A stretch of DNA of 64,000 nucleotides from a virus (lineage: Duplodnaviria; Heunggongvirae; Uroviricota; Caudoviricetes): IMG/VR virus record IMGVR_UViG_3300006143_000348; one strand, 5' to 3'. Position numbers and translations under genes: made by a program. This document shows, piece by piece, positions 6,981 to 24,980 of the stretch (position 1 is its first letter; each line of letters starts with the position of its first letter). The notes under the pieces were generated by a model. It was not told the origin of the DNA. It saw nothing but the letters and a program-made list of their open reading frames with translations, and searched no databases.

Positions 6981-7001
6981 AACTTTTTTAAAAAAAGTAC
7001 T

Positions 7002-10913: not shown

Positions 10914-11678
10914 GTGGTAAGTATGAGAGCGGAGGTAAAAGAGATTCCGTTTAGCGGAGGTACGATGTTGGGAGTTAGAACACCAGATGGGAAAGTTTGG
11001 CTGGCTGTTAAGAAAGTGTGCCTTGATATTGGACTGTCAGAAGGGCAGGCAAAAAAGGAAATAAGAAGGATTGAATCATCTATTCTCTTTAAGGGCAACT
11101 GGATCAAATTTGATCCAGTTCAAAAAGAGGGAAGTAGAGATGTAAGGCGTAATATTATTGTAATTGCTGAAAAGTTTGTACCTATGTGGCTTGCCCAAAT
11201 CAATATAACTCCAACCATGCAAAGGGAAAATCCAGAGGCAGCGCAGAAGCTCCTCTCGTATCAGCTAGAAGCCGCAGACGTGCTTCACAAGGCATTTTAC
11301 GAGACAGACGAACAGAAGTCTGCGTTTGATGCAAGAATGGGTTTGGAAGGCAAAATAGAAACTATGTGCGAGCAGATAAGTAATGTAGAATCCATGATGC
11401 AGGAACAGTCAGGGAAATTAAACCAGGTAGTAGACAACATGACCTTAACCACCAGACAGCAACAGAGAATTTACAAGGCTGCAAAAGATAGGATTAACCA
11501 CCTGCTAGGCGGCGCACATTCTGAGGAATATAAGAGCCGCTCCAAAAGCTACTTCATTAACTTATGGAATGGGTTAAAAGCGGAGTTTGAGTGCGGCGGT
11601 TCGTATAAGGACTTGAACCCTGTCTACTTTGATGCCGCGCTGGGATATATCGGGTCGTGGCGGTATGTAGAAACATAG
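10914..11678 (+). CDS. Phage antirepressor-like protein, Rha-like N-terminus + ORF6C C-terminal domain
   Basis: N-terminus 'GVRTPDGKVWLAVKKVCLDIGLSEG' is Rha-like. The C-terminus 'TTRQQQRIYKAAKDRINHLLGG...YKDLNPVYFDAALGYIGSWRY' is shared with five other paralogs in the window (ORF6C-type). The last roughly 300 nt are about 90% identical to 21470-21770. Confidence 0.8.
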   Translation: MVSMRAEVKEIPFSGGTMLGVRTPDGKVWLAVKKVCLDIGLSEGQAKKEIRRIESSILFKGNWIKFDPVQKEGSRDVRRNIIVIAEKFVPMWLAQINITPTMQRENPEAAQKLLSYQLEAADVLHKAFYETDEQKSAFDARMGLEGKIETMCEQISNVESMMQEQSGKLNQVVDNMTLTTRQQQRIYKAAKDRINHLLGGAHSEEYKSRSKSYFINLWNGLKAEFECGGSYKDLNPVYFDAALGYIGSWRYVET

Positions 11679-11713
11679 TCGGGAAATTGAGAACATTTGT
11701 ACGATGTTAGTAT

Positions 11714-11742
11714 TGACATTGCGTGAGGTTTGTGGTAGGATA
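11714..11742 (+). promoter_or_regulatory. Promoter TTGACA-N17-TAGGAT (duplicated at 21805-21833)
   Basis: Near-consensus -35 with 17-nt spacing. Conserved in both copies of the segmental duplication. Confidence 0.55.
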
Positions 11743-11744
11743 GT

Positions 11745-12018
11745 GCAAACAGATGTTTGAAATGGTTTTTGAGAAAAAAAGTACAGCCGAGTTGCAGCTC
11801 GACTGTACGGGTATTACTATTTAGTCGGAAACCATTCCGACTCACATCAAGAAATAGAGGCTGCATAAAACAACAACCACAATTTTTTTGGTGAACAAGC
11901 ACAATCAAACTTGTTCGTATCTAGTATGCCACGAAATGCACAGAAAGTCAACAGGGAAATTGTAATTTTTTGATTTGTGAATTTGAACGAAGAAAGTCCA
12001 CTGTAAGGTGGGCTTTTT
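11745..12018 (+). ncRNA. Candidate structured RNA / long leader (copy A) ending in a rho-independent terminator (GTCCAC-tgtaag-GTGGGC then T5 at 11996-12018)
   Basis: Promoter plus about 270 nt plus terminator. Hairpins: GTACAGCCGAG-ttgcag-CTCGACTGTAC, AGTCGGAA-acca-TTCCGACT, GAACAAG-N10-CTTGTTC. Contains only a 15-codon ORF (MPRNAQKVNREIVIF). The same architecture recurs at 21836-22102 and, in part, upstream of the 44455 gene. Confidence 0.35.
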
Positions 12019-12268
12019 AGTATATATGTATAAAAATGGAGGGAGGGACAGTAAGAAATACGGGGTTTGTCCGTTTTTCGGACGAACCCCAAATGGAGTC
12101 ACGAATCATGACGCCATATCAAGATAAAAAATCGAGATGTGAGAATTTTCACGAGTTAAACCAAGAGGGTGAAATCTGCCCGCTTGGTTTAGAAATGTCG
12201 TAGGGTAAAACGCGGAAAAGGGTATTTGACTGGGAACTAACGAAAATAATTTAGGAGGGAAAGCGGAT

Positions 12269-12721
12269 TTGGAAGGGATTGAGATTTTCAGCAACGAGGA
12301 ATTTGGTGAAATTAGGACGGTGGTTATTGATGGTGAGCCTTGGTTAGTTGGGAAAGACGTGGCGGTTGCGCTGGGGTATAAGGATACAGTAAATTCCTTG
12401 AAAGCCCATATTGACGAAGAAGATAAAAGGGGGTGGCGAATCACCACCCCTAGAGGAGAGCAGACAATGACGATAATTAACGAATCCGGCCTATACTCCC
12501 TCATCTTCGGCAGCAAGCTGGAATCCGCGAAGCGTTTCAAGCACTGGGTAACATCCGAGGTTCTTCCTGCAATTCGCAAAACAGGCAGGTATATTGCACC
12601 ATCTGAGGGCACGATGGAATCTATGTTTGAAGCTATGAGCTGCGATATGAAAATGGTTTATGAGCGGATGAGCAATATAGAATCTATGATGCAAGAACAA
12701 GCAAGGGGTAACGATTCGTGA
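12269..12721 (+). CDS. Bro-N domain antirepressor paralog, C-terminally truncated (lacks ORF6C domain)
   Basis: 'MEGIEIFSNEEFGEIRTVVIDGEPWLVGKDVAVALGY' is Bro-N. Compared with the copy-B paralog 22319..23023, the ORF stops right after the 'NIESMMQEQ' linker. An AGGAGGG RBS is present. Confidence 0.7.
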   Translation: MEGIEIFSNEEFGEIRTVVIDGEPWLVGKDVAVALGYKDTVNSLKAHIDEEDKRGWRITTPRGEQTMTIINESGLYSLIFGSKLESAKRFKHWVTSEVLPAIRKTGRYIAPSEGTMESMFEAMSCDMKMVYERMSNIESMMQEQARGNDS

Positions 12722-12911
12722 CCCCTTATCAAGATAAAAAGGAATATGGGGGGGGGCAAAACGCCCCCTCATCTTGGAACATTAAAATGATAAGCAGGGA
12801 TTTTGCATTATAGAAGCGATAGGGGAATTGCTTCTCAGGTGTTGCTAATCTGGCAACACCTCAAATGGCAAATGGGGTCGCGATTTGCGCTCCTATCAAG
12901 ATAAAAATAAA

Positions 12912-13628
12912 ATGAAAGAGGTATTCACAGTGGAAAATGTAGCATTAATTCAGGGGACGGAATTACAGGTCAAAGAGTATCAGGGGAACAGGGTTGTGAC
13001 GTTCAAGGATGTTGACAGGGTACATCAGAGGCCGGACGGGACAGCAAGAAGGCGGTTCAACGATAATAGGAGGCGATTTCTTGAGGGGACGGATTTCTTT
13101 AAAATAACGCCGTCCGAATTTCGGACAGCGATTGGGGATATGGACTTGCGGCAGCAGAATAACGTAACCCTTCTTACCGAAAGCGGCTATCTCATGTTAG
13201 TAAAGTCTTTTACTGACGACTTAGCCTGGAAAGTCCAGAGGGATTTGGTGAACACATACTTCAAGATGAAAGAAGTAGTGGAATCCGCTACCCCGGAAGA
13301 AACAGGGATGGTTCTTACGCAAGAGGGTTTTGCAGATGCAGTCCATGCACTGACCGGGTGTGCAAGCATATTCCAGTCGATGCTCGACTACTCCACAATC
13401 AACTATAAGCAACAGCAGGAACTTTTGCAGGCGGCAAGGCGGCGGGTCAGCCAGCTTCTTGGCGGGGCGCATTCAGACAGGTACAAACAGTCGTCCAGAA
13501 CATACTTCAGGAATCTCTGGCAGGATTTCTGCGAGTACTTCTCTTGCGGCTCGTACCGGGATTTAAACCCGCAGTACATGGTAGATGACGCTGCGGCAAG
13601 GTGGATTTCAGAGTGGTCATATGGCTGA
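12912..13628 (+). CDS. ORF6N(KilA-N-like)-ORF6C antirepressor-like protein
   Basis: 'VTFKDVDRVHQRPDGTARRRFNDNRRRFLEGTDFF' is an ORF6N-type N-terminus. C-terminus 'NYKQQQELLQAARRRVSQLLGGAHSDRY...YRDLNPQYMVDDAAARWISEW'. The track ORF starts at 12885. ATG 12912 matches the start of the near-identical copy-B gene at 23100. GTG 12930 is an alternative start. Confidence 0.8.
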   Translation: MKEVFTVENVALIQGTELQVKEYQGNRVVTFKDVDRVHQRPDGTARRRFNDNRRRFLEGTDFFKITPSEFRTAIGDMDLRQQNNVTLLTESGYLMLVKSFTDDLAWKVQRDLVNTYFKMKEVVESATPEETGMVLTQEGFADAVHALTGCASIFQSMLDYSTINYKQQQELLQAARRRVSQLLGGAHSDRYKQSSRTYFRNLWQDFCEYFSCGSYRDLNPQYMVDDAAARWISEWSYG

Positions 13629-13902
13629 TAATGCAAGGGCTGGGCGCTTAGATATCCAGGGAGATAACAGGAGGGTTTTTGTGGGCAGAAGAGAATATGC
13701 AAAACGCAGCAAGCGGGGTAAACGCCTCAGGATGTTAAAGCAGCGGCTTGTGGCGATAGAAATATTGCTTATATGCGTGCTTATCACTGTGTGGGAGTTC
13801 GAGGGCAACAACGGAATCCCCTGCGACATGTGCGGGATTATCTTCATCGCGGTGCTTGCTTTGTACTTGCTTTTTACGAAGGAGTGCTGGGTTTACGACT
13901 GA
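13621..13902 (+). CDS. Small membrane protein (two predicted TM helices), basic N-terminus
   Basis: Two hydrophobic stretches are evident by eye: 'LVAIEILLICVLITVW' and 'IIFIAVLALYLLF'. The start is uncertain. ATG 13621 overlaps the upstream stop (ATGGCTGA). GTG 13681 has an AGGAGGG RBS. The protein is about 98% identical to 23812..24093. Confidence 0.5.
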   Translation: MADNARAGRLDIQGDNRRVFVGRREYAKRSKRGKRLRMLKQRLVAIEILLICVLITVWEFEGNNGIPCDMCGIIFIAVLALYLLFTKECWVYD

Positions 13903-14065
13903 TGGGAAAGATACCGTCGTGAATCGCGGCGGTAATCACACATAGTTGATGTCGAAGATAGGATTAATTCTAAAGCTCAAGGTCAAAATGCCCCTGAGTT
14001 TTGGCAACGCGGCAGCATTATCTGAAGTGGAAGCATAAAATTAGGGAATCCAGGAGGGTAAAAGG

Positions 14066-14503
14066 ATGGGAAAAGGTATAAAAAGGCTGATATTGATGGT
14101 AATAGCGGTTCTTGCAATGCTGCTGCTGGTTTCGCAGACAGCACATGCGTCATCGGACAGGCAGTATAAAACCTGCAGGCAGGCAAGGCGGGCGATTAGT
14201 AAAAAGTTTAGTAAGTATGGAAAAGTGAAGTTCATCCAGACGAAGAACCTGACGAACCGGATGCTCCTACGCAGAAAAGGCTCCGGGGAAATCATCGTCG
14301 AGGTTTGCAAAGGCAAGGTCATGAACCGGAATGGAGACGGCAAGGTTTTCAATACCGGGAAAGAACATGGCTACTACATGAACTACAGCGGGCTGAAGGG
14401 AATCCGCAAGGGTTCCAGGGTGACAACGTACTGTGTCTACGAATGGGGCAACAACTACACGGATGCAGTCGGCTGGCGGTACGATGTAGTTACGAAATAC
14501 TGA
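14066..14503 (+). CDS. Secreted hypothetical protein with N-terminal signal peptide
   Basis: 'MGKGIKRLILMVIAVLAMLLLVSQTAHASS' is typical n-h-c signal peptide architecture. An AGGAGGG RBS is present. Confidence 0.8.
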   Translation: MGKGIKRLILMVIAVLAMLLLVSQTAHASSDRQYKTCRQARRAISKKFSKYGKVKFIQTKNLTNRMLLRRKGSGEIIVEVCKGKVMNRNGDGKVFNTGKEHGYYMNYSGLKGIRKGSRVTTYCVYEWGNNYTDAVGWRYDVVTKY

Positions 14504-14552
14504 AAACATAAAAAAGGTTACTGACTATTTTTGGAACCTCCTTTCTTAATGG

Positions 14553-14590
14553 CTCTGACACTGATTGTTTGCCCAGTGTCAGAGCCGGTT
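14553..14590. promoter_or_regulatory. Perfect 13-bp inverted repeat GGCTCTGACACTG-N12-CAGTGTCAGAGCC (terminator-like, no T-tract)
   Basis: Seen in the sequence after the secreted-protein gene. Confidence 0.35.
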
Positions 14591-14712
14591 GTGTAAATAG
14601 GGGAAATCCAGAAGGTTTTAGATAAATAAAAGCGAGCAACAAGTACACGGACGGGCTGCGGGGCGCTGAGCCTCCGCAGCAGTTCAAGAATATAAAACGA
14701 GGAGGGATGAGA

Positions 14713-15009
14713 TTGAATAAGGAAGATATGGTTCGTAAGGTTTCTAAGGACACCAAGTACAGCCCTGATGTAGTGAGGGAAATCACGGAGTCGCTGCTGG
14801 GAAACGTCGTGTCGGCCACGGCGGGTGGTGAAAAGGTATCCATTTCCGGGTTCGGGACATTTGAGCCAGTGGAAAAGAAAGCGAGAACAGGAAGGAACAT
14901 ATGTGCAGGAAGGCCGGTGCATATCCCGGCACATGTTGCCCCGGTTTTCAGGCCGGCAAAAGCATTTAAAGAAGCTGTATACAGAGAGGTGAAGCCATGC
15001 AGAACATAG
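14713..15009 (+). CDS. hup: HU/IHF-family DNA-binding protein
   Basis: 'VSISGFGTFEPVEKKARTGRNICAGRPVHIPAHVAPVFRPAKAFKEAV' matches the HU beta-arm region (GFGxFE...ARxGRNP...IP...P.FKPGKALK). A TTG start at 14713 is proposed, because GGAGGG at 14699-14704 lies 8 nt upstream. The track start ATG 14707 abuts the SD sequence. Confidence 0.8.
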   Translation: MNKEDMVRKVSKDTKYSPDVVREITESLLGNVVSATAGGEKVSISGFGTFEPVEKKARTGRNICAGRPVHIPAHVAPVFRPAKAFKEAVYREVKPCRT

Positions 15010-15569
15010 CAATACAGCCACATGAATTATGGGATTATTACAAAGAGAAAAAAGACGACCTTAGAACGTCGATGCACAGGGTCGCGAGCAATTCTGACTA
15101 CGGTGTGGAAATCTATATAACGGTAGGGGACGAGTGGCCGGAGATAGTGGTGTATGTCGACGGCGAAGAGGAATTCAGTGAAATCCTCGTGGGAAGTTCC
15201 TATTGTTGGAAAACAGCAGAGGAGATTTACGAAAAGTTCCTGACATCCAAAGCAATGGACATCTTTGGTGATGATGAGTCCCAGGAAGAGGATGAACTCA
15301 TCGCAATCGAGGAGAGGGAGCAGGAACTGGATGATGCGGTTCGCCAGTTTTACCTGGCGGTCATTGGGGGCGAGCCGTATTACGATGGCGATGACATGGA
15401 GGAGATGCTTGAGGACTTGAAAGAGCGTTTCCTGGAATATATGGCACGGGAATGGGAAGTTCCGATATTCCGTCCAATGAGGATGGAAGATGTAGAAACC
15501 GGTGAGGAATTCTACGAAGAATACCCATACGAGTGCATGGAATTCGAGGATGGAAAAGCCCATGTATAA
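14997..15569 (+). CDS. Acidic hypothetical protein (190 aa)
   Basis: Clean ORF, D/E-rich. Its last roughly 55 nt are duplicated at 16914-16966. Confidence 0.7.
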   Translation: MQNIAIQPHELWDYYKEKKDDLRTSMHRVASNSDYGVEIYITVGDEWPEIVVYVDGEEEFSEILVGSSYCWKTAEEIYEKFLTSKAMDIFGDDESQEEDELIAIEEREQELDDAVRQFYLAVIGGEPYYDGDDMEEMLEDLKERFLEYMAREWEVPIFRPMRMEDVETGEEFYEEYPYECMEFEDGKAHV

Positions 15570-15709
15570 CCTTTCTTTCTATAAGCCGGCGGGTTTTAGG
15601 TTTAGCCTGCCGGTATGTTCACTGATGCTCGGCTTCCGGGAATGCCATCCCAAGCGTGAACGGGTAACGCAAACGGAGTAAATATAAAATAAAAAAGGAG
15701 AACAAAATT

Positions 15710-16102
15710 ATGGCAAAAATCACAATCGCAGGACAGGCAGTAGTAGTAACCAGCACACTGAAACTGGAGGATATCAAGATGGTTAAGAAGTACCGTCCGG
15801 ATGCACTCACCCTGAGAGGCGGGGAAGATGGGAAGGAGCCTATCTTTGCCCTGGGAGTAGGGGAAGGCGGAATCAATAAGTTCGGTGCTTCCTTCCAGAT
15901 GGAAACACGGGATGAGGAGAAGCTGGCGGTTCTGACGATGACTACAGGGTATGACGGCGACGATATCGAGGAGTTCGTAGCAGACGAGCTTGGTGCGGCA
16001 ATCGTCAACTTAGGCAAGCTGGAAGAGAAACTTCCGGGGGTTATTGATGAGATTAAGGCTGAGAGACAGGCAATCATGTCCAACATCACTGTTGCGCAGT
16101 AG
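15710..16102 (+). CDS. Hypothetical protein (130 aa)
   Basis: AAAAGGAGAA RBS. A hairpin terminator GGCTGCCG-tgaaaatg-CGGCAGCC follows at 16112-16137. Confidence 0.75.
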   Translation: MAKITIAGQAVVVTSTLKLEDIKMVKKYRPDALTLRGGEDGKEPIFALGVGEGGINKFGASFQMETRDEEKLAVLTMTTGYDGDDIEEFVADELGAAIVNLGKLEEKLPGVIDEIKAERQAIMSNITVAQ

Positions 16103-16202
16103 GATGTACATCGGCTGCCGTGAAAATGCGGCAGCCCAAATTGACAACTGAATATAGGATTCCATAAACCAAAATAAAACGTAGAAGAAAAGGAGATAGA
16201 GT

Positions 16203-16424
16203 ATGATTCAGGTTACAGTAGGAAATAACGTAAAGAGAGAAAAAATGATTGTGGATGCTAACAGGACTCTGCGCAGCGTGCTGGAAGAGGCAGGGATTGA
16301 CTATACAAGGGGTGTGATGCACCTGGATGGCGCTTCGGTGAATCCGGGTGACCTCGATAAGACCTTTGCAAGCTTCGGGATTGCTGAAAAATGTTTCCTG
16401 TTAAGCGTAGTTAAAGCGGATTGA
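16203..16424 (+). CDS. Small beta-grasp (ThiS/MoaD/ubiquitin-like) protein, 73 aa, no terminal GG
   Basis: The pattern 'MIQVTV...VDANRTLRSVLEEAGID...VMHLDGASVNPGDLDKT...FLLSVVK' parallels ThiS 'V.LNG..V......L.DGD.I.I...V.GG'. It ends ...VVKAD rather than GG. AAAAGGAGA RBS. Confidence 0.55.
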   Translation: MIQVTVGNNVKREKMIVDANRTLRSVLEEAGIDYTRGVMHLDGASVNPGDLDKTFASFGIAEKCFLLSVVKAD

Positions 16425-16861
16425 CTAGCAGGCAATGCTAAATAGTCCCATGTGAGAGTAATTTCACATGCAAATCTATCGAATTGCTGGGAACCCCTAA
16501 AGCTCGCAATACCACAACGTAAGAATGAAAGAAATCTAAGCGTGACGGTAACGAAAGTAGAAAGAAATTGCGAGATGGCGCAAGGTTAAATCCTAAACGC
16601 TTTTGCAATGGGCAATCAGCAGCGAAGCTCCGAACAGGAGAACGTTCAACGACTATCCCGTAAGGGAGTAGGGCGCAAGCGGTCGGTGTCCGAAGTGGTA
16701 GACACCCTGAGAAAAAGGGCGATGATATAGTCTGTACTGTAGGGAAACTTACAGAAATCTCTTTGGAGGCAGCATGGAACAGCGAGCCATGCTGAACATA
16801 ATAGAATGCATAGGAGCTTGTAGCACAGTGGCAAGCGGGTTAGGCAACTAGCCCGCTTGTT

Positions 16862-16900
16862 CTTTTAGGTGGGTGAAACTTGGCAGCACCCCGTTTTTTT
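16862..16900 (+). terminator. Rho-independent terminator (GGGTG...CACCC + T10) closing a roughly 430-nt ORF-free structured region (16430-16900)
   Basis: Stem GGTGGGTG/CACCCC followed by TTTTTTTTTT. Upstream is an 8-bp hairpin CAAGCGGG/CCCGCTTG. The region has no ORF longer than 62 aa and is GC-balanced with many hairpins. Confidence 0.6.
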
Positions 16901-17001
16901 TTTCATCCAGTACGGTGAGGAATTCTACAAAGAATACCCATACGAGTGCATGGAATTTGGAGATGGCTGGGATAGGAGCCGGAGGAAAGTGAACAGGGTG
17001 C

Positions 17002-17026
17002 ATGGGTTCAATTCCCATATTCACCA
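17002..17026 (+). other. tRNA 3'-end-like fragment (T-arm ATGGG-TTCAATT-CCCAT + 7-nt acceptor-like strand); candidate att-core remnant
   Basis: GGGTTCAATTCCC is a canonical T-loop. No matching 5' half could be found, so this is not a tRNA gene. Confidence 0.35.
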
Positions 17027-17054
17027 TTAAATAATTTTAGAAGGAGGAATTCAA

Positions 17055-18569
17055 ATGTTTAGACAGGTTGTAAGAGGAACAGCATTAACGACAGCAGAGG
17101 CGGACGCATATTTCGGGCGTATTCACGGAGAGTCTTTTTCAGATGACGTCACATTTCTGTCCACATTAAGGGCGTTGGTTGCACCAAGGATGCAGGAGGG
17201 AGAAAAAGTTTGTGTGAGGTTTATAAATTCGAGCTATGAGGAACGCTCCGTCCAGGGTGCAGGTTCTGATGCAGTGGTCAGGGCTGTTTATAATGCGCAG
17301 TATTTTAATGACGGCTCTGTTACAATCCATGATTTCCGAGGGAGAAAAGAAGATGTCCGTGCGAATTTCGAGGTAATTGAGTCATCTTTTTGCGACGTAT
17401 ACCAGGGATGGCAACGTCTTGAAAAAGTAACGGATTTTTTCCGAAGGACATTTTACTGTGTGTGTTTTGTGAACCCGGAGAGAAGGAGGGTTGTGATTTT
17501 CACAGACCCTCTGAACATGCAGAAAATGCACTACCTGCAGTGTGCAATCTTTGCTTTCATGCCGTGGTATTTCAACCCGGAAGATGGCGTGAAAACGGAG
17601 GAAATGGAACTCATCCAGTCGCTTAGGGGAAAAGACGTTGATGAATATCTGAAATGCATAGCAAAAATTGCATCACAGTATGATTTCAGGAGCGATTACA
17701 TCCGTAAAGCATTGGCAGGTTTTGAAGCCAACTTTGAGAAAAGAGAGCGAGAAGAAGAGAAAGATAAGATTAGAGATTTAATGCTTGACATTGAGCGTTT
17801 CCAGAATAAGTTGGCAGATACTTTGCGAATTAAGCGCAACCATGAAATTAAATTGCTTGGATTGGAAACGAAAATCGCACAGAGCACAGAGGGCGATTCT
17901 GAAATTATGGAATATTTCTTGTGCAACCGGAACCTTTCTTTAAGGGATGTAACGGAGAATATATTGTGCTTTGTTGCGAAAGGGTATGTAACTTACTATG
18001 ACGAGGACATGGCGAAGGCGATGGTTGATAATGAGAACAGCTACGTATATCGGCTTCGTGGATACGATTGCAACAGCCGCATTGAGAAACAGGATATGAA
18101 ACGGCTGATGTATGCGATTTTTATCGACCAGACTCTGAAGCTCAAGTTTTGCGCTGCGTATAAATTTGAGTTCGGGGTGAGGGTGTATGCAATTAGCGGA
18201 TATGAATATAACGAAGAATTTTCTGACTGTATGCCAAACCCCCACATTGACGAGTATAGCTGTATGGGAGATTACGAACGGACAATGAACGAATGCATCG
18301 GGAGTAGTGATTACATTGGCGCTTTAGAGCAGGGCGTTGCTTCCTGCAAGAGCCTGAACTTTGGCGACAGCACAGTTATGCAGGAATTCATGAAACGCAT
18401 GTACGGGTTCGGAGACCGCCCATATCATTGTATTGAACTTCCGGACGGACAGATTGTAACACCTGAAGAGGCCATTCGGTGGATGAAAAAGGAAGATAGA
18501 ATCCAGGAAGAGGATGCAAAAGCAGGGGTAGATGAAACGCAGAAAAGAGGAGGTAGCGGCGATGAGTAA
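17055..18569 (+). CDS. Hypothetical protein (504 aa), translationally coupled to the downstream JAB protease
   Basis: AGGAGGAAT RBS. Its 3' end overlaps the JAB gene start by 8 nt. It contains a 'MPNPHIDEYSC' segment faintly reminiscent of the E2 HPN-Cys region, which is weak evidence. Confidence 0.8.
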   Translation: MFRQVVRGTALTTAEADAYFGRIHGESFSDDVTFLSTLRALVAPRMQEGEKVCVRFINSSYEERSVQGAGSDAVVRAVYNAQYFNDGSVTIHDFRGRKEDVRANFEVIESSFCDVYQGWQRLEKVTDFFRRTFYCVCFVNPERRRVVIFTDPLNMQKMHYLQCAIFAFMPWYFNPEDGVKTEEMELIQSLRGKDVDEYLKCIAKIASQYDFRSDYIRKALAGFEANFEKREREEEKDKIRDLMLDIERFQNKLADTLRIKRNHEIKLLGLETKIAQSTEGDSEIMEYFLCNRNLSLRDVTENILCFVAKGYVTYYDEDMAKAMVDNENSYVYRLRGYDCNSRIEKQDMKRLMYAIFIDQTLKLKFCAAYKFEFGVRVYAISGYEYNEEFSDCMPNPHIDEYSCMGDYERTMNECIGSSDYIGALEQGVASCKSLNFGDSTVMQEFMKRMYGFGDRPYHCIELPDGQIVTPEEAIRWMKKEDRIQEEDAKAGVDETQKRGGSGDE

Positions 18570-19491
18570 GATGGTAAAAATAACCCAGGAGTGCTTAGAA
18601 CAGTGCCAGAAAGAGTTTATGGAAGCGCTGTCCGGGGGCAAGTTCCCGGACGGGAAGGTAACATTTACGAAAACCCTGGGGACGCTGAATAGGAAAGCAC
18701 GGGTACTTTTTAAGGAATTGGCGTGGCTGAAAATGCAGACGCTGATTCGCGAGTTCGATAAGGAAGTGGCATGGCATGGCATAGCTTGCCGGGGAGACGA
18801 ACCGGACACCTATTATATCACAGATATCCTGGTGTATCCGCAGGAAGTTACGGGCGCGACGGTCACAACAGACCAGGAAAAATACCAGATGTGGCTTATG
18901 GGGCACGACGACGACATCTTCAACAACATCAGGATGCAGGGGCATTCCCATGTGAATATGGGTGTTTCGCCTTCGTCTGTGGATACTTCCCTGTATGACC
19001 GTCTGCTTGAACAGCTTGATGACGACATGTTCTATATCTTCATGATTTGGAACAAGAGGAAAGACAGGATGGTTAAGATTTATGACCTGAAAACCAATGT
19101 GCTTTTTGAGACGGAGGACGTAAGCATCGAAGTAGTAGCTGACGAAGACGGGATTGAAAAGTTCCTTAAAAATGCGCGGGAGATGGTGGTAAACAGGCCT
19201 GTGGTCAGCTATGGGCATGGATACCCTGCGAACTTATCGAGATACGATACGCGGTATGGCTTACATTCCGGGGCGTTCGCAGGTTCTCCAAAAAACGGGG
19301 GCAGCACGCCGGGAAAAACGCAAGCCCTTACGGAGTCCAAAGATAAAAAGAAAAAAGGGAGACGTAAGGGCAGGCGTAAAGATGGGTACGGGAAGAATAG
19401 CAACGTAGGCAAGGCAGGCATCTGTACGGACGATGTGGATGTGCTGGACGAGCAGCTCTATGAAAGCCTGTACATGCGTGACTATCATTAA
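18562..19491 (+). CDS. JAB/MPN (JAMM) metalloprotease-domain protein
   Basis: 'GHSHVNMGVSPSSVD' fits the JAMM signature HxH-x7-S-x2-D, with an upstream Glu. The start at ATG 18562 has GAGGAGG 7 nt upstream. The track ORF starts at 18532. Lys/Arg-rich C-terminal tail. Confidence 0.8.
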   Translation: MSKMVKITQECLEQCQKEFMEALSGGKFPDGKVTFTKTLGTLNRKARVLFKELAWLKMQTLIREFDKEVAWHGIACRGDEPDTYYITDILVYPQEVTGATVTTDQEKYQMWLMGHDDDIFNNIRMQGHSHVNMGVSPSSVDTSLYDRLLEQLDDDMFYIFMIWNKRKDRMVKIYDLKTNVLFETEDVSIEVVADEDGIEKFLKNAREMVVNRPVVSYGHGYPANLSRYDTRYGLHSGAFAGSPKNGGSTPGKTQALTESKDKKKKGRRKGRRKDGYGKNSNVGKAGICTDDVDVLDEQLYESLYMRDYH

Positions 19492-19507
19492 AATATAAGG
19501 GTGGGTG

Positions 19508-20017
19508 ATGTATATGACGAGAGAAGCATTTCTTGAAGTGGTTAATACATGGTCGGAATTGATAAGCCTGTGCGAAGAATATGACTGTGATGAGTGCGCC
19601 CGTGTCCGTGATACAGAGATGTACGATGATTATATGAACAGTGAGCTGTTCAATAGAGTAAGAGACGAGATTGACTGGGAAGATATAAAATCATGGCTTG
19701 AGGACGCTCCACAGGGATACGATTATTACGATTACGATGAAGTATATGACCGGTTTAGTGGCTTAGACGAGGAGGATTTTAGGAGGTATAAAGGATATGT
19801 GCTTAGCTGGATGGAAAATGAGGGGGTGTTTGAAGAAGAGGAGGATGAATATGACGAGGAAACCGATGATGAAGCCGATGAGGATACGTCCCTCCAAGAA
19901 TATGAACCAGATTATGAGTGTGAGCCGCCAGAAGAGCCGGTTTCCATTGGGGAATTGTTCAGGTTGTGCAACGCTGAGATGGCGGAGGCAGGCATGAGAG
20001 CCGTGAAAACCAATTAG
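19508..20017 (+). CDS. Highly acidic hypothetical protein (about 169 aa; possible DNA-mimic/anti-restriction-type)
   Basis: Runs such as 'EEEEDEYDEETDDEADED'. D/E residues are abundant by eye. The start is ambiguous among GTG 19505, ATG 19508 and ATG 19514. Confidence 0.65.
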   Translation: MYMTREAFLEVVNTWSELISLCEEYDCDECARVRDTEMYDDYMNSELFNRVRDEIDWEDIKSWLEDAPQGYDYYDYDEVYDRFSGLDEEDFRRYKGYVLSWMENEGVFEEEEDEYDEETDDEADEDTSLQEYEPDYECEPPEEPVSIGELFRLCNAEMAEAGMRAVKTN

Positions 20018-20035
20018 GTGTGTAAGCGGAAAGCT

Positions 20036-20098
20036 GAGGGTCAAATTTGACCCTCAGGCCTAAGAAACGTTTGTGATTGCTGGTAGGGGTCACTAAAA
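20036..20098. terminator. Two strong hairpins: CTGAGGGTCAAA/TTTGACCCTCAG (12-bp palindrome) and GGGGTCAC-N8-GTGACCCC. Likely a bidirectional terminator or binding sites.
   Basis: Seen in the sequence between the acidic protein gene and the Uma2 gene. Confidence 0.45.
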
Positions 20099-20176
20099 TG
20101 GTGACCCCCTGGCGGAAAATGATTCTTCCTAAATTCAGCGAAATATGATATAGTGGCAAATAAGGAGGTGCTTAGT

Positions 20177-20731
20177 ATGGGATTAGCTGAATTTGAACGA
20201 AGAAAAGATGAAAAAATTGACGGAGTGATATATGATATGTCACCATCTCCAGGATATCGGCATTGCATTATCAATGGTAATATTTATACTATAATTAGGC
20301 AAGGATTAAAAAGCAGCATATGCCTTGTGTCTATGGAAAACTTGGATTTTAAATACCATCCTGATATAAATGATGATTACTTATGTCCAGATATCATGGT
20401 TATGTGCGACCGGAAACATTTAAAGGGCGGAGCCTACAGTGGCGTCCCCAAGTTCATCGCTGAAACATTAAGCCATTCGACAGCGAAGAGAGACAGGACG
20501 GAAAAGAAAGATATCTATGAAAAGGCGGGCGTGGAAGAATACTGGATTGTTTCGCCGCAGGGGTCTTTAGAAATCTATTTCTTGCAGGATGGGAAATATA
20601 TACTGGAACAGAACTATATGCTCCAAAACGACAAGGAAGACGATGAGTATAATGCAGAGATAGAAATATGTCTCAGGGAATTCCCACATATCAAGATGAC
20701 ATTAGGAGAAATTTTTGAGGGAATCGAATAA
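20177..20731 (+). CDS. Uma2-family (DUF820) PD-(D/E)xK endonuclease
   Basis: 'MSPSPGYRHCII', 'PDIMVM', 'FIAETLSHSTAKRDRTEKKDIYEKAGVEEYWIVSP' match the Uma2 family signature. The start at ATG 20177 has AAGGAGG 7 nt upstream. The track start 20153 contains the SD sequence. Confidence 0.85.
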   Translation: MGLAEFERRKDEKIDGVIYDMSPSPGYRHCIINGNIYTIIRQGLKSSICLVSMENLDFKYHPDINDDYLCPDIMVMCDRKHLKGGAYSGVPKFIAETLSHSTAKRDRTEKKDIYEKAGVEEYWIVSPQGSLEIYFLQDGKYILEQNYMLQNDKEDDEYNAEIEICLREFPHIKMTLGEIFEGIE

Positions 20732-20794
20732 AATACAATTCCTGAATTAGTAAGAAGGTATTGCTTAATCATCTATTTTGATGGTTTTGCAATG

Positions 20795-20945
20795 CCTTTT
20801 TTATGAATGAAGGATTGAGGTTGTCATCAGCCTAAAAAGATATATCTACCGTTGGAACGACGGAAAGTTACGCCTGTGGAGATGGAGGTTACGAAGTCGA
20901 TGAAGCAGGAATCTCACGACTTCATTCGTGAGAGGTTCAATTTGC
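20795..20945 (+). repeat. About 150-bp conserved non-coding element (copy 1 of 3; others at 38238-38390 and, partially, 38850-38920)
   Basis: About 90% identical to 38238-38385. Contains GGTTACGAAGTCGATGAAGCAGGAA followed by a hairpin (CTCACGA-cttcat-TCGTGAG). In the third copy the hairpin sequence differs but base-pairing is kept (CCCACCGAGC-ttta-GCTCGTGGG). Confidence 0.6.
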
Positions 20946-21047
20946 GGAAAATTTGATTCAGGGTAAGAAACTGGCAGGTCATGCAGACATGGTGCCCAGA
21001 CTGGGGAATTAACGAAAAATGAAAATAATACAAGGGGAAAGGTAGAT

Positions 21048-21770
21048 TTGGAAGAGATTAATATTTTTAGTAATGAGGAGTTTGGTGAAATTAGGACGGT
21101 AATTATTGATGGAGAGCCGTGGCTTGTAGGAAAGGATGTAGCGTTGGCGTTGGGATATTCTGAGCCGAGAAGTGCTGTTTCAAAAAGAGTAGATAAAGAA
21201 GATAGAGGTGTTGCCAAAACGGCAACACCATCGGGGATACAGGAAATGACCATCATTAATGAATCTGGTTTGTACGCCCTTATCTTTGGAAGCAGGCTTG
21301 AATCCGCGAAGCGTTTCAAGCACTGGGTGACATCCGAAGTTCTCCCTGCAATCCGCAAAACAGGCAGGTATATTGCACCATCTGAGGGCACGATGGAATC
21401 TATGTTCGAAGCCATGAGCTGTGATATGAAAATGGTTTATGAGCAGATGAACAAATTTGATGAGCGGATGGAAAGCGTAGAATCCATGATGCAGGAACAG
21501 TCAGGGAAATTAAACCAGGTAGTAGACAATATGACTCTGACAACCAGACAGCAACAGCGGATTTATAAAGCAGCGAAAGATAGAATCAACCATCTGCTCG
21601 GCGGCGCACATTCTGAGGAATATAAAAGCCGTTCTAAAAGCTACTTCATTAACTTATGGAACGGTCTAAAAGCAGAGTTCGAGTGCGGCGGGTCGTATAA
21701 GGACTTGAATCATGTCTATTTCGATGCTGCGCTGGGGTATATTGGGTCGTGGCGGTATGTAGAAACATAG
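21048..21770 (+). CDS. Bro-N + ORF6C antirepressor paralog
   Basis: 'MEEINIFSNEEFGEIRTVIIDGEPWLVGKDVALALGY' is Bro-N. The C-terminal ORF6C region is near-identical to 10914..11678. Confidence 0.85.
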   Translation: MEEINIFSNEEFGEIRTVIIDGEPWLVGKDVALALGYSEPRSAVSKRVDKEDRGVAKTATPSGIQEMTIINESGLYALIFGSRLESAKRFKHWVTSEVLPAIRKTGRYIAPSEGTMESMFEAMSCDMKMVYEQMNKFDERMESVESMMQEQSGKLNQVVDNMTLTTRQQQRIYKAAKDRINHLLGGAHSEEYKSRSKSYFINLWNGLKAEFECGGSYKDLNHVYFDAALGYIGSWRYVET

Positions 21771-21835
21771 TCGGGAATTTAAGAACATTTGTACGATATT
21801 GGTATTGACATAGCACGGGGGTTGTGGTAGGATAG

Positions 21836-22102
21836 TGCAAACGGATGTTTGAAATGGTTTTTTGAAAAAAAGTACAGCCGAGCTGCAACTCGACTGTACG
21901 GGTATTACTAATTAGTCGGCAATCACTCCGACTCACACTAAGAAAAAATGAGGTTGCATGAACAACAACCACAACTTTATTCAATGAACAAGCACAAACA
22001 AACTTGTTCGTATCTAGTATGCCACGAAATGCACAGAAAGTCAACAGGGAAATTCTGAAAATATCAAGTTGATTTTAAAAGCTCACCGCAAGGTGGGCTT
22101 TT
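21836..22102 (+). ncRNA. Candidate structured RNA / long leader (copy B), downstream of the promoter at 21805-21833 (TTGACA-N17-TAGGAT), with terminator GCTCACC-GCAA-GGTGGGC + T4 at 22081-22102
   Basis: Same hairpin set as copy A, with loop and sequence differences that preserve the stems. Confidence 0.35.
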
Positions 22103-22143
22103 GATATATATGTACAGAATAAAAGGAAATTGTAGAATCGAAC

Positions 22144-22179
22144 TGTCGCAAATTTGCGACATATTTCAAGATAAAAAAA
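22144..22179. promoter_or_regulatory. 16-bp perfect palindrome GTCGCAAATTTGCGAC followed by the 'TTCAAGATAAAAAAA' motif (candidate operator/promoter element of the antirepressor genes)
   Basis: Related palindromes sit at 23060-23082 (GGGGGTCGCAAATCGCGACCCCC) and 12871-12890. The TCAAGATAAAAA motif recurs at 12120, 12729, 12896, 22165, 23084 and 46033. Confidence 0.4.
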
Positions 22180-22318
22180 TTTGGGATGTGAGAATTTTCG
22201 CGAGTTAAACCAAGAGGGTGAAATCCGCCCGCTTGGTTTAGAAATGTCGTAGGGTAAAACATGGCAAAAGGGTATTTGGCTGGGAACTAACGAAAATAAT
22301 TTAGGAGGGAAAGTAGAT

Positions 22319-23023
22319 TTGGAAGGGATTGAGATTTTTAGCAACCAGGAATTTGGTGAAATTAGAACGGTGGTTATTGATGGTGAGCCGTGGTTTGTGG
22401 GGAAGGATGTAGCGTTGGCGTTGGGGTATGAGAAGCCGAGAAATGCCATAGCTACACATGTTGATGTAGAGGATAAAAAGGGAGCCCCGATTCAGGGCTC
22501 CCCTGGGGGAACACAGGAAATGATTGTCATTAACGAATCTGGAATGTACGCTCTGATTTTTGGAAGCAAACTTGAATCCGCGAAACGTTTCAAGCACTGG
22601 GTGACATCCGAAGTTCTCCCTGCAATCCGTAAAACAGGCAGGTATATTGCACCATCTGAGGGTACGATGGAATCTATGTTTGAAGCTATGAGCTGCGATA
22701 TGAAAATGGTTTATGAACAGATGGGCAATATAGAATCTATGATGCAAGAACAGTCAGGAAAATTGAACCAGGTAGTAGACAACATGACTCTGACAACCAG
22801 ACAGCAACAGCGGATTTATAAAGCAGCGAAAGACAGAATCAACCATCTGCTCGGCGGCGCACATTCTGAGGAATATAAGAGCTGTTCTAAAAGTTACTTC
22901 ATTAACTTATGGAATGGGTTAAAAGCAGAGTTTGACTGTGGCGGTTCGTATAAGGACTTAAACCCTGTCTATTTCGATGCCGCGCTGGGGTACATCGGGT
23001 CGTGGCGGTATGTGGAAACATAG
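22319..23023 (+). CDS. Bro-N + ORF6C antirepressor paralog
   Basis: Full-length counterpart of the truncated 12269..12721. AGGAGGG RBS. Confidence 0.85.
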   Translation: MEGIEIFSNQEFGEIRTVVIDGEPWFVGKDVALALGYEKPRNAIATHVDVEDKKGAPIQGSPGGTQEMIVINESGMYALIFGSKLESAKRFKHWVTSEVLPAIRKTGRYIAPSEGTMESMFEAMSCDMKMVYEQMGNIESMMQEQSGKLNQVVDNMTLTTRQQQRIYKAAKDRINHLLGGAHSEEYKSCSKSYFINLWNGLKAEFDCGGSYKDLNPVYFDAALGYIGSWRYVET

Positions 23024-23099
23024 TCGGGAAATAACTTAATTTCAGTCTGAGTAGCAAAGGGGGTCGCAAATCGCGACCCCCTTTCAAGATAAAAATAAA

Positions 23100-23819
23100 A
23101 TGAAAGAGGTATTCACAGTGGAAAATGTAGCATTAATTCAGGGGACGGAATTACAGATTAAAGAGTATCAGGGGAACAGGGTTGTGACGTTTAAGGATGT
23201 TGACAGAGTTCACCAGAGGCCGGATGGGACGGCAAGAAGGCGGTTCAACGATAATAGGAGGCGATTTCTTGAGGGGACTGATTACTTTAAAGTTTGTGCG
23301 TCCGAAATTCGGACGCACAACATTATGGACATATCAAGCAAAGCACATGAAGATATGACCCTCCTTACTGAAAGCGGCTATCTCATGTTAGTAAAGTCTT
23401 TTACTGACGACTTAGCTTGGAAAGTCCAGAGGGATTTGGTGAACACATACTTCAAGATGAAAGAAGTAGTAGAATCCGCCACCCCGGAGGAAACAGGAAT
23501 GGTTCTCACGCAAGAGGGTTTTGCAGATGCAGTCCATGCACTGACTGGGTGTGCAAGCATATTCCAGTCGATGCTCGACTACTCCACAATCAACTATAAG
23601 CAACAGCAGGAACTTTTACAGGCGGCAAGGCGGCGGGTAAGCCACCTTCTCGGCGGGGCACATTCGGACAGGTACAGGCAGTCGTCCAGGATATACTTCA
23701 GGAATCTCTGGCAGGATTTCTGCGAGTACTTCTCTTGCGGCTCCTACCGGGATTTAAACCCGCAGTATATGGTAGATGACGCTGCGGCAAGGTGGATTTC
23801 GGAGTGGTCATATGGCTGA
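23100..23819 (+). CDS. ORF6N(KilA-N-like)-ORF6C antirepressor-like protein (copy B of 12912..13628)
   Basis: Near-identical to copy A except for a divergent segment ('FKVCASEIRTHNIMDISSKAHEDMT' vs 'FKITPSEFRTAIGDMDLRQQNNVT'). Confidence 0.85.
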   Translation: MKEVFTVENVALIQGTELQIKEYQGNRVVTFKDVDRVHQRPDGTARRRFNDNRRRFLEGTDYFKVCASEIRTHNIMDISSKAHEDMTLLTESGYLMLVKSFTDDLAWKVQRDLVNTYFKMKEVVESATPEETGMVLTQEGFADAVHALTGCASIFQSMLDYSTINYKQQQELLQAARRRVSHLLGGAHSDRYRQSSRIYFRNLWQDFCEYFSCGSYRDLNPQYMVDDAAARWISEWSYG

Positions 23820-24093
23820 TAATGCAAGGGCTGGGTGCTTAGATATCCAGGGAGATAACAGGAGGGTTTTTGTGGGCAGAAGAGAATATGCAAAACGCAG
23901 CAAGCGGGGTAAACGCCTCAGGATGTTAAAGCAGCGGCTTGTGGCGATAGAAATATTGCTTATATGCGTGCTTATCACTGTGTGGGAGTTCGAGGGCAAC
24001 AACGGAATCCCCTGCGACATGTGCGGGACTATCCTCATCGCGGTGCTTGCTTTGTACTTGCTTTTTACGAAGGAGTGCTGGGTTTATGACTGA
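23812..24093 (+). CDS. Small membrane protein (copy B of 13621..13902)
   Basis: Same two hydrophobic helices. The start overlaps the upstream stop. GTG 23872 is an alternative start. Confidence 0.5.
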   Translation: MADNARAGCLDIQGDNRRVFVGRREYAKRSKRGKRLRMLKQRLVAIEILLICVLITVWEFEGNNGIPCDMCGTILIAVLALYLLFTKECWVYD

Positions 24094-24210
24094 GGGAAAT
24101 GACTGCTATAAGCGATGAGGGAGTCCATTCGGTGGACATCCCCTTTGGAGCACAGAAACGACAATTATGGACGAGCTACGGAAACATTATTGCTTAGAGA
24201 GGAGAAATTA

Positions 24211-24980
24211 GTGGAAGTAATTGAGATTTTTTTTAGCAATGAAAAATTCGGGGAAATCAGGGCGGTAATCACCGATGGCGAGCCGTGGTTTGTGGGGAAA
24301 GATGTGGCGACGGCGTTGGGATATAAAGACGCAAAAAAGCTTTAAAAGTTCATGTTGATGAAGAGGATAGACAGTTAATCCAAAGGGGGCAAACCGCCCC
24401 CTTAGAAATCCCGAATCGTGGAATGACCATCATTAACGAATCTGGCTTGTATGCCCTTATATTTGGAAGCAAACTTGAATCTGCTAGGCGTTTCAAACAC
24501 TGGGTAACATCCGAAGTTCTCCCTGCAATCCGCAAAACAGGCAGGTATATTGCACCATCTGAGGGGACGATGGAATCTATGTTTGAAGCTATGAGCTGTG
24601 ATATGAAAATGGTTTATGAACGAATGAGCAATATAGAAAGTAAAATTGATGAGCGGATGGAAAGCGTAGAATCCATGATGCAGGAACAGTCAGCTATGAT
24701 GCAGGAACAGTCAGGAAAATTGAACCAGGTAGTAGACAACATGACTCTGACAACCAGACAGCAACAGCGGATTTATAAAGCAGCGAAAGACAGAATCAAC
24801 CATCTGCTCGGCGGCGCACATTCTGAGGAATATAAGAGCTGTTCTAAAAGTTACTTCATTAACTTATGGAATGGGTTAAAAGCAGAGTTTGACTGTGGCG
24901 GTTCGTATAAGGACTTAAACCCTGTCTATTTCGATGCCGCGCTGGGGTACATCGGGTCGTGGCGATATGTAGAAACATAA
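24211..24980 (+). pseudogene. Bro-N + ORF6C antirepressor paralog disrupted by a frameshift (track ORFs 24115..24345 and 24423..24980)
   Basis: The N-terminal part (VEVIEIFFSNEKFGEIRAVITDGEPWFVGKDVATALGYKD) ends at 'AKKL*' inside an A-run. The +1 frame then continues KVHVDEEDRQLIQRGQTAPLEIPNRGMTIINESGLY.... Intact paralogs read straight through. Confidence 0.6.

Follow-up and report, generated by a model that had tools for sequence, protein, structure and literature searches.

Within a 64,000-nucleotide (nt) stretch of the virus record IMGVR_UViG_3300006143_000348, called the window here, an expanded family of antirepressor-like genes is accompanied by a regulatory module that occurs twice in a segmental duplication (copy A at ~11.4-13.9 kb, copy B at ~21.5-24.1 kb) and a third time at 44.1 kb (copy C). 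Each module pairs a plus-strand promoter, P(+), and a palindrome directly downstream of its -10 element with a conserved block that reads on the opposite strand as a promoter, P(-), predicted to drive a small structured antisense RNA towards P(+). A first-pass annotation of the same DNA had placed here a leader RNA of about 270 nt with three hairpins conserved through compensatory changes. The hairpin-rich stretch, ending in a plus-strand terminator, is there; however, A and B show no double-sided compensatory changes, pairing is kept on the minus strand only, and the structure is better supported on that strand, with a promoter and a terminator of its own. We take the window to belong to a large phage of temperate type, related to Bacillus phage SPbeta, whose host is an anaerobic Firmicute of the mouse gut; feature positions are collected in Table 1, and L-numbers (L003, L107, L164 etc.) denote contigs or assemblies from other samples used for comparison.

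Convergent promoters and a predicted antisense RNA

The P(+) sites of A and B are two of the three best-scoring among 28 promoter-like sites, each with 10/12 matches, and their hexamers are the same while the spacer has diverged; the TTGACA-N17-TAGGAT promoter of the first-pass annotation is thus present in both copies. The opposing promoter lies in the conserved block TAGTATGCCAC-N11-AAAGTCAA, whose opposite strand, TTGACTTT-N11-GTGGCATACTA, has the form TTGACT-17-TGgCATACT, and the promoter scan itself reports this site on the minus strand in A and in B. Across three diverged types of module (A/B, C and those of related phages) its hexamers and TG do not vary, and the 11-nt spacer occurs in six versions. 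A pattern scan of public collections returned members of the family together with 42 distinct unrelated sites, 15 of which have, by a strict criterion, a Shine-Dalgarno (SD) sequence plus an open reading frame (ORF) downstream in the leftward sense, compared with 6 in the control direction; the sites in unrelated genomes include promoters of chromosomal genes of Clostridia (metagenome-assembled genomes, MAGs).

The DNA between the two promoters pairs better when read from P(-). Read on the plus strand, what had been taken for the leader's first hairpin comes after a run of A7; its minus-strand form, a G+C-rich stem of 11-12 bp with T7 behind it, is an intrinsic terminator, and in the relatives this stem shows a compensatory change from U-A to C-G. 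Among A, B and L107, each one-sided change in hairpins 1-3 leaves a G.U pair on the minus strand, where the plus strand has C.A, and a fourth hairpin (GGUUGU/GCAGCC) forms on the minus strand only. Consensus folds of the A/B-type sequences reach -45.7 kcal/mol on the minus strand versus -27.3 on the plus strand (12 versus 2 G.U cells, 0 versus 2 broken), and those of seven distinct related-phage sequences reach -41.0 versus -26.0 kcal/mol (44 versus 11 G.U). In these relatives a 12-bp 5' hairpin holds four invariant G.U pairs, 97% of cells are paired as against at most 50% with slid partners, and four pairs have changed on both sides. In 18 of 18 sequences the minus strand has the lower minimum free energy, by 11-22 kcal/mol; in control windows of the genome the plus strand is favored by 6 kcal/mol on average, and 0.6% reach -11. 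We lean, at slightly better than an even chance, towards reading the 'structured leader' as a convergent small antisense RNA gene that has a promoter and a terminator of its own. Searches of Rfam at gathering and E-value thresholds gave no match in the modules.

In A and B, and in neither copy C nor the relatives, a plus-strand terminator lies ~45 nt beyond the antisense promoter, in agreement with the rho-independent terminator annotated at first pass, and no gene lies between it and the predicted antisense RNA. This terminator bears on a different account, in which the plus transcript is itself a functional leader of ~270 nt, an attenuator or riboregulator acting in cis on the downstream antirepressor gene, and the block is an RNA or peptide element of that strand. 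The near-consensus P(+) would suit such a leader, the plus strand also folds better than its shuffles (z from -3.6 to -6.7), the terminator stem keeps its pairing through G.U on the plus strand, and in L107 the terminator is followed by the Bro-N gene without a further promoter, which makes control by read-through plausible. A plus-strand RNA would nevertheless have to carry the stem changes as C.A mismatches and the four G.U pairs of the relatives' 5' hairpin as A.C, with a consensus fold 15-18 kcal/mol weaker; it has no Rfam match, the small ORFs are not conserved, and a block whose ends are conserved and whose spacer is free has the pattern of a promoter, not that of an RNA helix. We regard this account as unlikely.

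Several further candidates were rejected. The leader peptide MFEMVFEKK... is frameshifted in copy B, and MPRNAQKVN... meets an in-frame stop in relatives; a type I toxin-antitoxin pair is not supported, no hydrophobic peptide being encoded; and the ORFs that follow P(-) on the minus strand (11624-11908 and 21649-22044) continue across the terminator, with 1-nt indels between the copies. The complement of a putative trans-acting seed, GUGGUUGUUG, common to several antisense RNAs, is not enriched in the window.

Between their two -35 elements, A and B differ at 28 positions, only 1 of which falls in the 113 element positions (promoter hexamers, box half-sites, consensus stems and U-tail) and 27 in the remaining 129 (Fisher p=2e-7, where the stem part is partly circular because the consensus fold included A and B, and the promoter and box positions are not); 1-nt indels also separate the copies within the module, which speaks against a coding role. 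Such avoidance of hexamers, half-sites and stems, in modules whose P(+) spacer has diverged, speaks against the modules being inert remnants of an early-promoter region that was copied with the cassettes, with hairpins that are intergenic terminators and with conservation due to recent gene conversion. The A/B copies have lost the gene that follows the 44.1-kb module, their identity is a mosaic from 83% to 95% as conversion predicts, and in some strains the module is missing from one cluster, all of which would fit inert remnants; the same architecture is found, however, in distant relatives whose flanking proteins are 25-36% identical, and we consider this explanation less probable than a functional plus-strand leader.

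The palindromes at P(+) share the form RAAC-N4-GTTY. Those of A and B differ in the central N4 only, and that of copy C, AAACAAATGTTC (reverse complement GAACATTTGTTT), is a perfect GAAC-N4-GTTT on the reverse strand; in 14 of 14 distinct related sequences a perfect GAAC-N4-GTTC stands at this site, with six different N4. GAAC-N4-GTTC is the SOS box of Bacillus. In Clostridium difficile, lexA, recA and ruvC carry the GAAC-N4-GTTT form (PMC4234289). The yopT (sar) promoter of SPbeta has the sequence TATAAT-N11-AGAACGCACGTTCC; LexA reportedly controls it, and the small protein made from it inactivates SroF/MrpR, the integrase-fold repressor (bioRxiv 10.1101/2025.11.27.690993). By analogy with that promoter, RAAC-N4-GTTY at P(+) may be a LexA (SOS) operator, an assignment that we make tentatively and rate somewhat below an even chance.

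Module C, the MrpR-like gene and a repeated box

The A/B modules are homologous to the 44.1-kb module (nhmmer E=1.3e-5), and for this reason we derive them from the 44.1-44.45 kb region; they do not have the gene that follows module C (gene C) and carry the terminator in its place. In module C, P(-) abuts the SD sequence GGAGGG of gene C, and the predicted antisense start lies ~40 nt upstream of this SD. The first-pass annotation had noticed that the block recurs at 44395-44440 and had taken it there for the start of a real gene, from which the leaders would descend by fusion or truncation. The recurrence (at 44409-44438) and the origin of the duplicated modules in this region both hold; the block is not a gene start, since the frame of ATG 44413 is stopped in relatives, four of which read ATGCCACAYCACTGCTAA, an in-frame stop, and since the gene starts at ATG 44455, with an SD sequence GGAGG(G/A) at the right distance and a product that aligns with the relatives' proteins from that ATG.

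Gene C encodes a protein whose AlphaFold2 (AF2) model (predicted local distance difference test, pLDDT, 74) has nine strands and one helix. Neither its sequence nor its predicted fold supports homology to Sar/YopT; a distant match of the gene C profile search (P0025) carries PF02452. Module C lies directly upstream of the region of the MrpR/YopR/SroF-like gene, whose product scores 50.1 bits against MrpR_N_CB (cut-off 27), over residues 1-80 only, and carries the PHROG label integrase; it has no phmmer match in the PDB and no tblastn match in deposited phages. The human-gut contig L094 has, behind a TTGACA-17-TATTCT promoter, an extra gene (6790-7296) that separates the gene C homologue from the MrpR-like gene; the same gene occupies the same place in L091, L097, L098, L131, L134 and L139, and is absent from the window.

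A recurrent box next to GC-rich palindromes had been annotated in the duplicated copies. The box, TCAAGATAAAAA, has six exact plus-strand copies in the window and one with a single mismatch, compared with 0.67 expected, and TCAAGMTAAWWW has 8 matches compared with 0.26. A variant, TCAAGATAATTA, is found at 51745, before the primase gene, and another, TCAAGATAATTC, lies on the minus strand at 44847-44858, over the -35 element of promoter 44855 leading to the MrpR-like gene. The relatives have their own version, TCAAGCTAATAAAATAATTTAC, at orthologous places, with three or more sites in both orientations, one of them again over the -35 element of the promoter leading to the repressor-like gene. 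The palindromes themselves, annotated as operators, do not bear that out: they are related (family D13) but vary between copies, one is decayed (12874-12893), and they are absent at 46034 and in L107, the adjacent non-palindromic box being the invariant part. Their spacing misfits sigma-70 promoters, and as terminators they are weak, with two or three U. In SPbeta the element bound by MrpR is non-palindromic and is repeated, occurring in about ten promoter regions (PMC10516654). Because the box is invariant and MrpR binds non-palindromic repeats, we rank an operator of the MrpR-like repressor above a palindromic operator, and TCAAGATAAAAA is a candidate for part of that operator, with a likelihood that we place a little lower than that of the LexA assignment.

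That the palindrome and the TCAAGATAAAAA box instead serve other phage proteins, for example the sigma-like protein (7161-8147), with the box as a promoter element or recombination joint, is improbable: the palindrome does recur in every unit of an 85-nt tandem array beside the sigma-like gene, the homology of the truncated gene breaks exactly at a palindrome-plus-box element and the box always precedes a cassette, yet the palindrome is missing from the related phages' arrays, non-cassette places (before the primase gene and over the repressor operon promoter) have the box or its variants as well, and the position of the palindrome matches that in the LexA-controlled SPbeta sar promoter.

From elements, conservation and a strand bias that are read from the sequence, we infer the transcripts, the protein-DNA contacts and the roles of the Bro-like proteins in the following model. 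A portable module sits, twice here, between an ORF6C-ending gene and the next Bro-N gene, and a third copy, of ancestral type, lies at 44.1 kb. Its strong, host-type P(+) would be held by LexA at the start-site palindrome, perhaps more weakly in A and B, and a convergent host-type P(-) ~200 nt downstream would make the antisense RNA, ~140 nt long with four hairpins, the last of them its terminator. Steady antisense transcription, RNA pairing and polymerase at P(-) would together suppress leakage of sense transcripts, whether through collision, through cleavage of the duplex or through more efficient termination at the plus-strand terminator. Strong derepression of P(+) would override the antisense, and the downstream genes would be expressed only then; the box before the cassettes would add a second lock through the MrpR-like repressor.

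Besides the partial circularity of the stem comparison, several points weigh against this model or parts of it. The strand bias is partly compositional, shuffled minus strands also folding ~7 kcal/mol better, and the shuffle z-scores differ modestly (-5.0 versus -4.4); the sequences compared are not diverse, with five alleles of A/B type and relatives from about three lineages. The predicted antisense RNA spans no gene's ribosome-binding site, and by eye no alternative (anti-terminator) pairing was convincing. The A/B palindrome is AAAC-N4-GTTT, with one mismatch in the GAAC half-site, and the consensus used is clostridial and may not be that of the host's LexA; because the count of RAAC-N4-GTTY in the window is not above chance after repeats are collapsed, its function is argued from position only. 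The box could instead be part of a promoter or a recombination joint. At E<=0.001 the gene C model matches nothing in the PDB, and its matches do not include 2DLB, although a monomer model may miss an intertwined dimer; the position of gene C relative to the repressor gene differs from that in SPbeta.

The fullest version of the model is a two-key cassette, in which a LexA-gated promoter, given a threshold by its own antisense RNA, is combined with an operator of the integrase-fold repressor and copied before diversifying antirepressor-like genes, so that one DNA-damage signal would release several of them. Taken whole, this is a speculation with a low chance of being right. Were it true, the released antirepressor-type proteins would possibly be aimed at the repressors of rival prophages, recombination would reshuffle their repertoire, and the neighboring variable tandem array with its LexA boxes could, by titrating LexA, act on the same circuit.

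Antirepressor-like genes and the recombination of their cassettes

Pfam identifies nine Bro-N/ORF6N/P22_AR_N genes in the window, eight of which are fused to ORF6C or KilAC and one of which (12269-12721) is truncated to Bro-N alone. Their N-terminal domains score 54.9-99.7 bits against gathering cut-offs of 25.6-30.7, and the genes at 46215 and 47719 also pass. Of the domains listed at first pass, Bro-N and ORF6N fused to ORF6C are found at the loci named, Rha is absent, P22_AR_N being the domain at 10914. 'Antirepressor' is used here as a family label (PHROG 'anti-repressor'), and inactivation of a repressor by these proteins is putative. Synonymous and non-synonymous codon differences number 27 and 20 in the ORF6N pair and 47 and 32 in the intact Bro-N pair. 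For the ORF6N gene of copy A, GTG 12930, behind AAAGAGG, is a likelier start.

Each of the two duplicated ORF6N genes is followed by a small ORF with two hydrophobic segments, to which gene callers assign 93 or 73 amino acids (aa). The protein had been annotated as a small two-segment membrane protein whose gene overlaps the antirepressor stop; the segments are there, and the overlap is lost if the 73-aa form is used, which starts at GTG 13681 or 23872 behind AGGAGG. No homologues were found outside the phage's own lineage.

The 2.6-kb duplication is collinear by blastn, as described at first pass, but not uniformly ~90% identical: 11385-12699 matches 21477-22752 at 82.9%, and 12868-13909 matches 23054-24099 at 92.8%, on either side of a replaced segment of 168 nt in copy A versus 301 nt in copy B. 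The Bro-N gene of copy A has lost its ORF6C half, the homology breaking after ...ATGATGCAAGAACA, and there follow a palindrome-plus-box element and then 130 nt of hairpin-rich non-coding DNA; L136 carries this Bro-N gene in untruncated form. Loss of 1 nt from an A-run (~24333-24338) has split the gene at 24211, and independent assemblies also call it as two ORFs. The view of a paralogue family expanding and decaying, with one truncation and one frameshift, is borne out. The 5' untranslated region (UTR) of the duplicated Bro-N genes (12131-12268 and 22178-22318) is the best conserved stretch of the first duplicated block, at 95%; it carries a hairpin, AAACCAAGAGGG..CCCGCUUGGUUU, which is dispensable given that L136 lacks 47 nt spanning it.

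Among ten assemblies of the same phage the cassette content differs, the right-hand cluster holding one to four cassettes. In L164 the P22_AR_N-ORF6C gene on the left is followed directly by ORF6N-ORF6C, with no truncated gene, and the right-hand side has three consecutive Bro-N-ORF6C genes. The truncated gene on the left is missing from L173 too; in L171 and L173 the right cluster stops after two Bro-N genes, without the ORF6N/membrane pair; and in L169 the split gene is the sole right-hand remnant. The short contigs L003 and L007 are A/B chimeras that join A-type to B-type flanks. The regulatory module is found 0, 1 or 2 times per cluster, always between an ORF6C 3' end and a Bro-N 5' end. 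Since cassette numbers differ and A/B chimeras exist, recombination among the cassettes is ongoing, as had been suspected, and the two tandem clusters grow, shrink and swap parts by homologous recombination at shared ORF6C and Bro-N ends.

Table 1. Positions of the antirepressor-like genes, regulatory elements and associated features in the window; promoters, operators and RNAs are predictions
Feature	Position	Strand	Basis or remark
P22_AR_N + ORF6C gene	10914-11678	+	Pfam; PHROG anti-repressor; duplicated segment begins in its ORF6C 3' end (blastn)
P(+) copy A, TTGACA-17-TAGGAT, upstream TG	11713-11741	+	promoter scan
Operator-like palindrome CAAACAGATGTTTG at P(+) A start site	11746-11759		one mismatch from clostridial LexA form GAAC-N4-GTTT
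Predicted ~140-nt antisense RNA, copy A, four hairpins	11774-11917	-	terminator hairpin 11781-11808, then U7
P(-) copy A	11922-11951	-	promoter scan; block TAGTATGCCAC-N11-AAAGTCAA, reads TTGACT-17-(TGg)CATACT
Plus-strand terminator hairpin + U-run, copy A	11993-12018	+	stem G.U pairs on plus strand
Imperfect palindrome + TCAAGATAAAAA box	12095-12130	+	~140 nt upstream of truncated Bro-N gene; family D13
Bro-N gene, truncated, ORF6C half replaced	12269-12721	+	Pfam; intact form in L136
Gene-less segment, copy A	12705-12907	+	flanked by palindrome + box elements 12705-12740 and 12874-12907; three hairpins inside
ORF6N + ORF6C gene, copy A	12912-13628 (or from 12885)	+	Pfam
Small protein, two hydrophobic segments, copy A	13621-13902	+	93 aa, or 73 aa from GTG 13681
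Bro-N + ORF6C gene	21048-21770	+	Pfam
P(+) copy B, TTGACA-17-TAGGAT, upstream TG	21805-21833	+	promoter scan
Operator-like palindrome CAAACGGATGTTTG, copy B	21838-21851		differs from copy A in central N4 only
Predicted antisense RNA, copy B	21865-22010	-	terminator 21872-21899, then U7
P(-) copy B	22015-22044	-	promoter scan
Plus-strand terminator, copy B	22078-22102	+	
Palindrome GTCGCAAATTTGCGAC + box	22145-22177	+	
Bro-N + ORF6C gene	22319-23023	+	Pfam; intact counterpart of 12269
Hairpin GGGGGTCGC..GCGACCCCC + box	23059-23095	+	
ORF6N + ORF6C gene, copy B	23100-23819	+	Pfam
Small two-segment membrane protein, copy B	23812-24093	+	alternative start GTG 23872
Split Bro-N/ORF6C gene	24211-24980 (24211-24345 + 24423-24980)	+	Pfam; -1 frameshift
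Ancestral-type module C	44101-44454		P(+) 44101-44130; palindrome within 44139-44152; P(-) 44409-44438
Predicted antisense RNA, module C	~44185-44405	-	
Gene C, 124 aa, mostly beta-strand	44455-44829	+	just upstream of repressor-like gene
MrpR/YopR/SroF-like integrase-fold repressor candidate gene	45035-45994	+	MrpR_N_CB domain; promoter at 44855
Sixth exact box	46034-46045	+	between repressor-like gene and ORF6N/ORF6C gene 46215
ORF6N + ORF6C gene	46215-46991		Pfam
Bro-N + KilAC gene (Pfam ANT)	47719-48486		Pfam

Known systems, the phage and neighboring features

Antisense control of an antirepressor is classical: in phage P22 immI (Pant/sar) the sar antisense RNA controls the antirepressor Ant, and the c4 RNA of P1/P7 controls ant. 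Classical too are LexA-controlled antirepressors, such as Sar of SPbeta, and the expansion and shuffling of BRO-type genes. Like P22 sar, the RNA predicted here is small and untranslated, and would start from a promoter inside the leader of the antirepressor unit, convergent on the antirepressor promoter. The sar RNA of P22 covers the ant ribosome-binding site, whereas the RNA predicted here would start ~40 nt upstream of the SD sequence (copy C) or upstream of the terminator (A, B); it would also be ~140-220 nt long with four or more hairpins, its sequence is unrelated, the host is a Firmicute, and there are no Arc/Mnt-type repressors. Transcription attenuation by antisense RNA is known from the Gram-positive plasmids pT181 (RNAI/II) and pIP501 (RNAIII). 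As in those, A and B have a sense promoter, a predicted antisense RNA gene, an intrinsic terminator and a regulated gene within ~300 nt, in a Firmicute; unlike them, they show by eye no conditional-terminator pairing, and copy C and all the relatives lack the terminator.

With the Sar-SroF system of SPbeta/phi3T the window shares an MrpR_N_CB protein and YonO-like and YonV-like genes. GAAC-N4-GTTY lies, as at SPbeta yopT, just downstream of the -10 element of a promoter adjoining the repressor gene, and a non-palindromic box is likewise repeated in intergenic regions, the box and the SPbeta element being likened here by description. The differences are that gene C, with 124 aa, stands upstream of the repressor gene and has no detectable resemblance to YopT/Sar in sequence or predicted fold; that SPbeta has a short 5' UTR without a convergent promoter, where a convergent P(-) is predicted here; and that the same promoter module here also precedes Bro-N/ORF6C genes. 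Iyer, Koonin and Aravind reportedly described, in 2002, the BRO, KilA-N and ORF6 multigene families of large DNA viruses and phages, which Pfam represents as PF02498, PF10543, PF10547, PF10552 and PF03374. The present genes follow that pattern, with shuffling of N-terminal DNA-binding modules onto a C-terminal module that they have in common, several paralogues in a genome, and decay as a frequent outcome; the proteins themselves are ordinary, and what goes beyond it is population evidence of cassette gain and loss together with a traveling regulatory module. What appears to be new is the combination of an SOS-type promoter with an opposing multi-hairpin antisense RNA whose promoter abuts the SD sequence, a combination that appears to be kept in an uncultured gut phage family, to be absent from Rfam and to have been copied before unrelated antirepressor-like genes.

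Antirepressors set when prophages leave dormancy, and the SPbeta-type switch has been resolved only recently, in Bacillus. The locus described here suggests that uncultured gut relatives layer an antisense RNA onto the SOS-type promoter, and that the module has spread to unrelated antirepressor-like genes, whose gain and loss continue in natural populations. If this is confirmed, the locus would offer a compact example of threshold setting by convergent transcription in gut phages, and a phage antisense RNA family absent from Rfam.

We assign the phage to an anaerobic Firmicute and to an SPbeta-type lineage with YonO/YonV/MrpR genes because of its gene content, identical proteins from the mouse gut and synteny with human-gut phages. 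The hallmark genes common with SPbeta are those for a YonO-like RNA polymerase, a YonV-like protein and the MrpR-like integrase-fold repressor candidate. The first two lie within 1895-6103 on the minus strand: a single-chain polymerase of 914 aa (Pfam RdRP, two-barrel, 60.7 bits) and a 417-aa neighbor with a YonV_C domain (from precomputed matches on other assemblies). Nearly all genes are on the plus strand, the coding strand is purine-rich and G+C is ~45%; the Pfam replication set comprises DNA polymerase III alpha, DnaB, primase, ERF, a PD-(D/E)XK nuclease, NrdD and PhoH. Proteins identical to those of the window are found on mouse-gut contigs (JGI 3300006213, several from ENA, Logan, and NCBI MAG contigs). 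Syntenic human-gut relatives of 66-128 kb have a DnaB 88% and an ERF 80% identical; they lack the genes at 46215 and 47719 and have a tRNA gene downstream of their repressor-like gene. No close relative was found among deposited phages, where only the intron core (below) gave matches, and a genome scan toward host identification returned unrelated promoters only.

The 85-nt tandem array consists of 11 units of ~85 nt at 8470-9426, with partial units from ~8200, between the sigma-like gene and a RAGATH-16 RNA motif. Every unit has GAAC-N4-GTT(C/T) with a variable N4, and other assemblies of the same phage hold 1-11 units. At the corresponding place, related phages carry arrays with units of 57-59 nt, which share CGGT..AGTG..GG.AAAC and lack the LexA-type box, which weakens the idea of a conserved LexA sponge. 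The array has no Rfam match, and a structured RNA was rejected, the consensus fold being weak on both strands; iterons, an array of binding sites or a repeated RNA are possible. The RAGATH-16 motif itself (9523-9594, plus strand; 75.1 bits, E=1e-12, above Rfam gathering) stands between the array and the gene at 9937.

A group I intron (16430-16754, plus strand, 82.5 bits) has on its two sides the copies of a 54-nt repeat (15500-15553 and 16913-16966, 93% identical). A tmRNA-like match at 35075-35372 (plus strand) is sub-threshold (30 bits, E=2.8e-8, gathering 47), and ARAGORN finds no tmRNA. At 25063-29503 a retron-type reverse transcriptase (26081-27220; PADLOC RT_II-A, 150 bits) has a ThiF/E1-like gene (25063-25734) and an AAA/nSTAND ATPase gene (28394-29503) on either side, and an IS110-family transposase gene lies at 29610-31010 on the minus strand. 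Between the antirepressor clusters, a Uma2-family nuclease gene (20153-20731, plus strand) matches the candidate defense family PDC-S03 (154 bits), and the clusters therefore flank an accessory or defense-like region.

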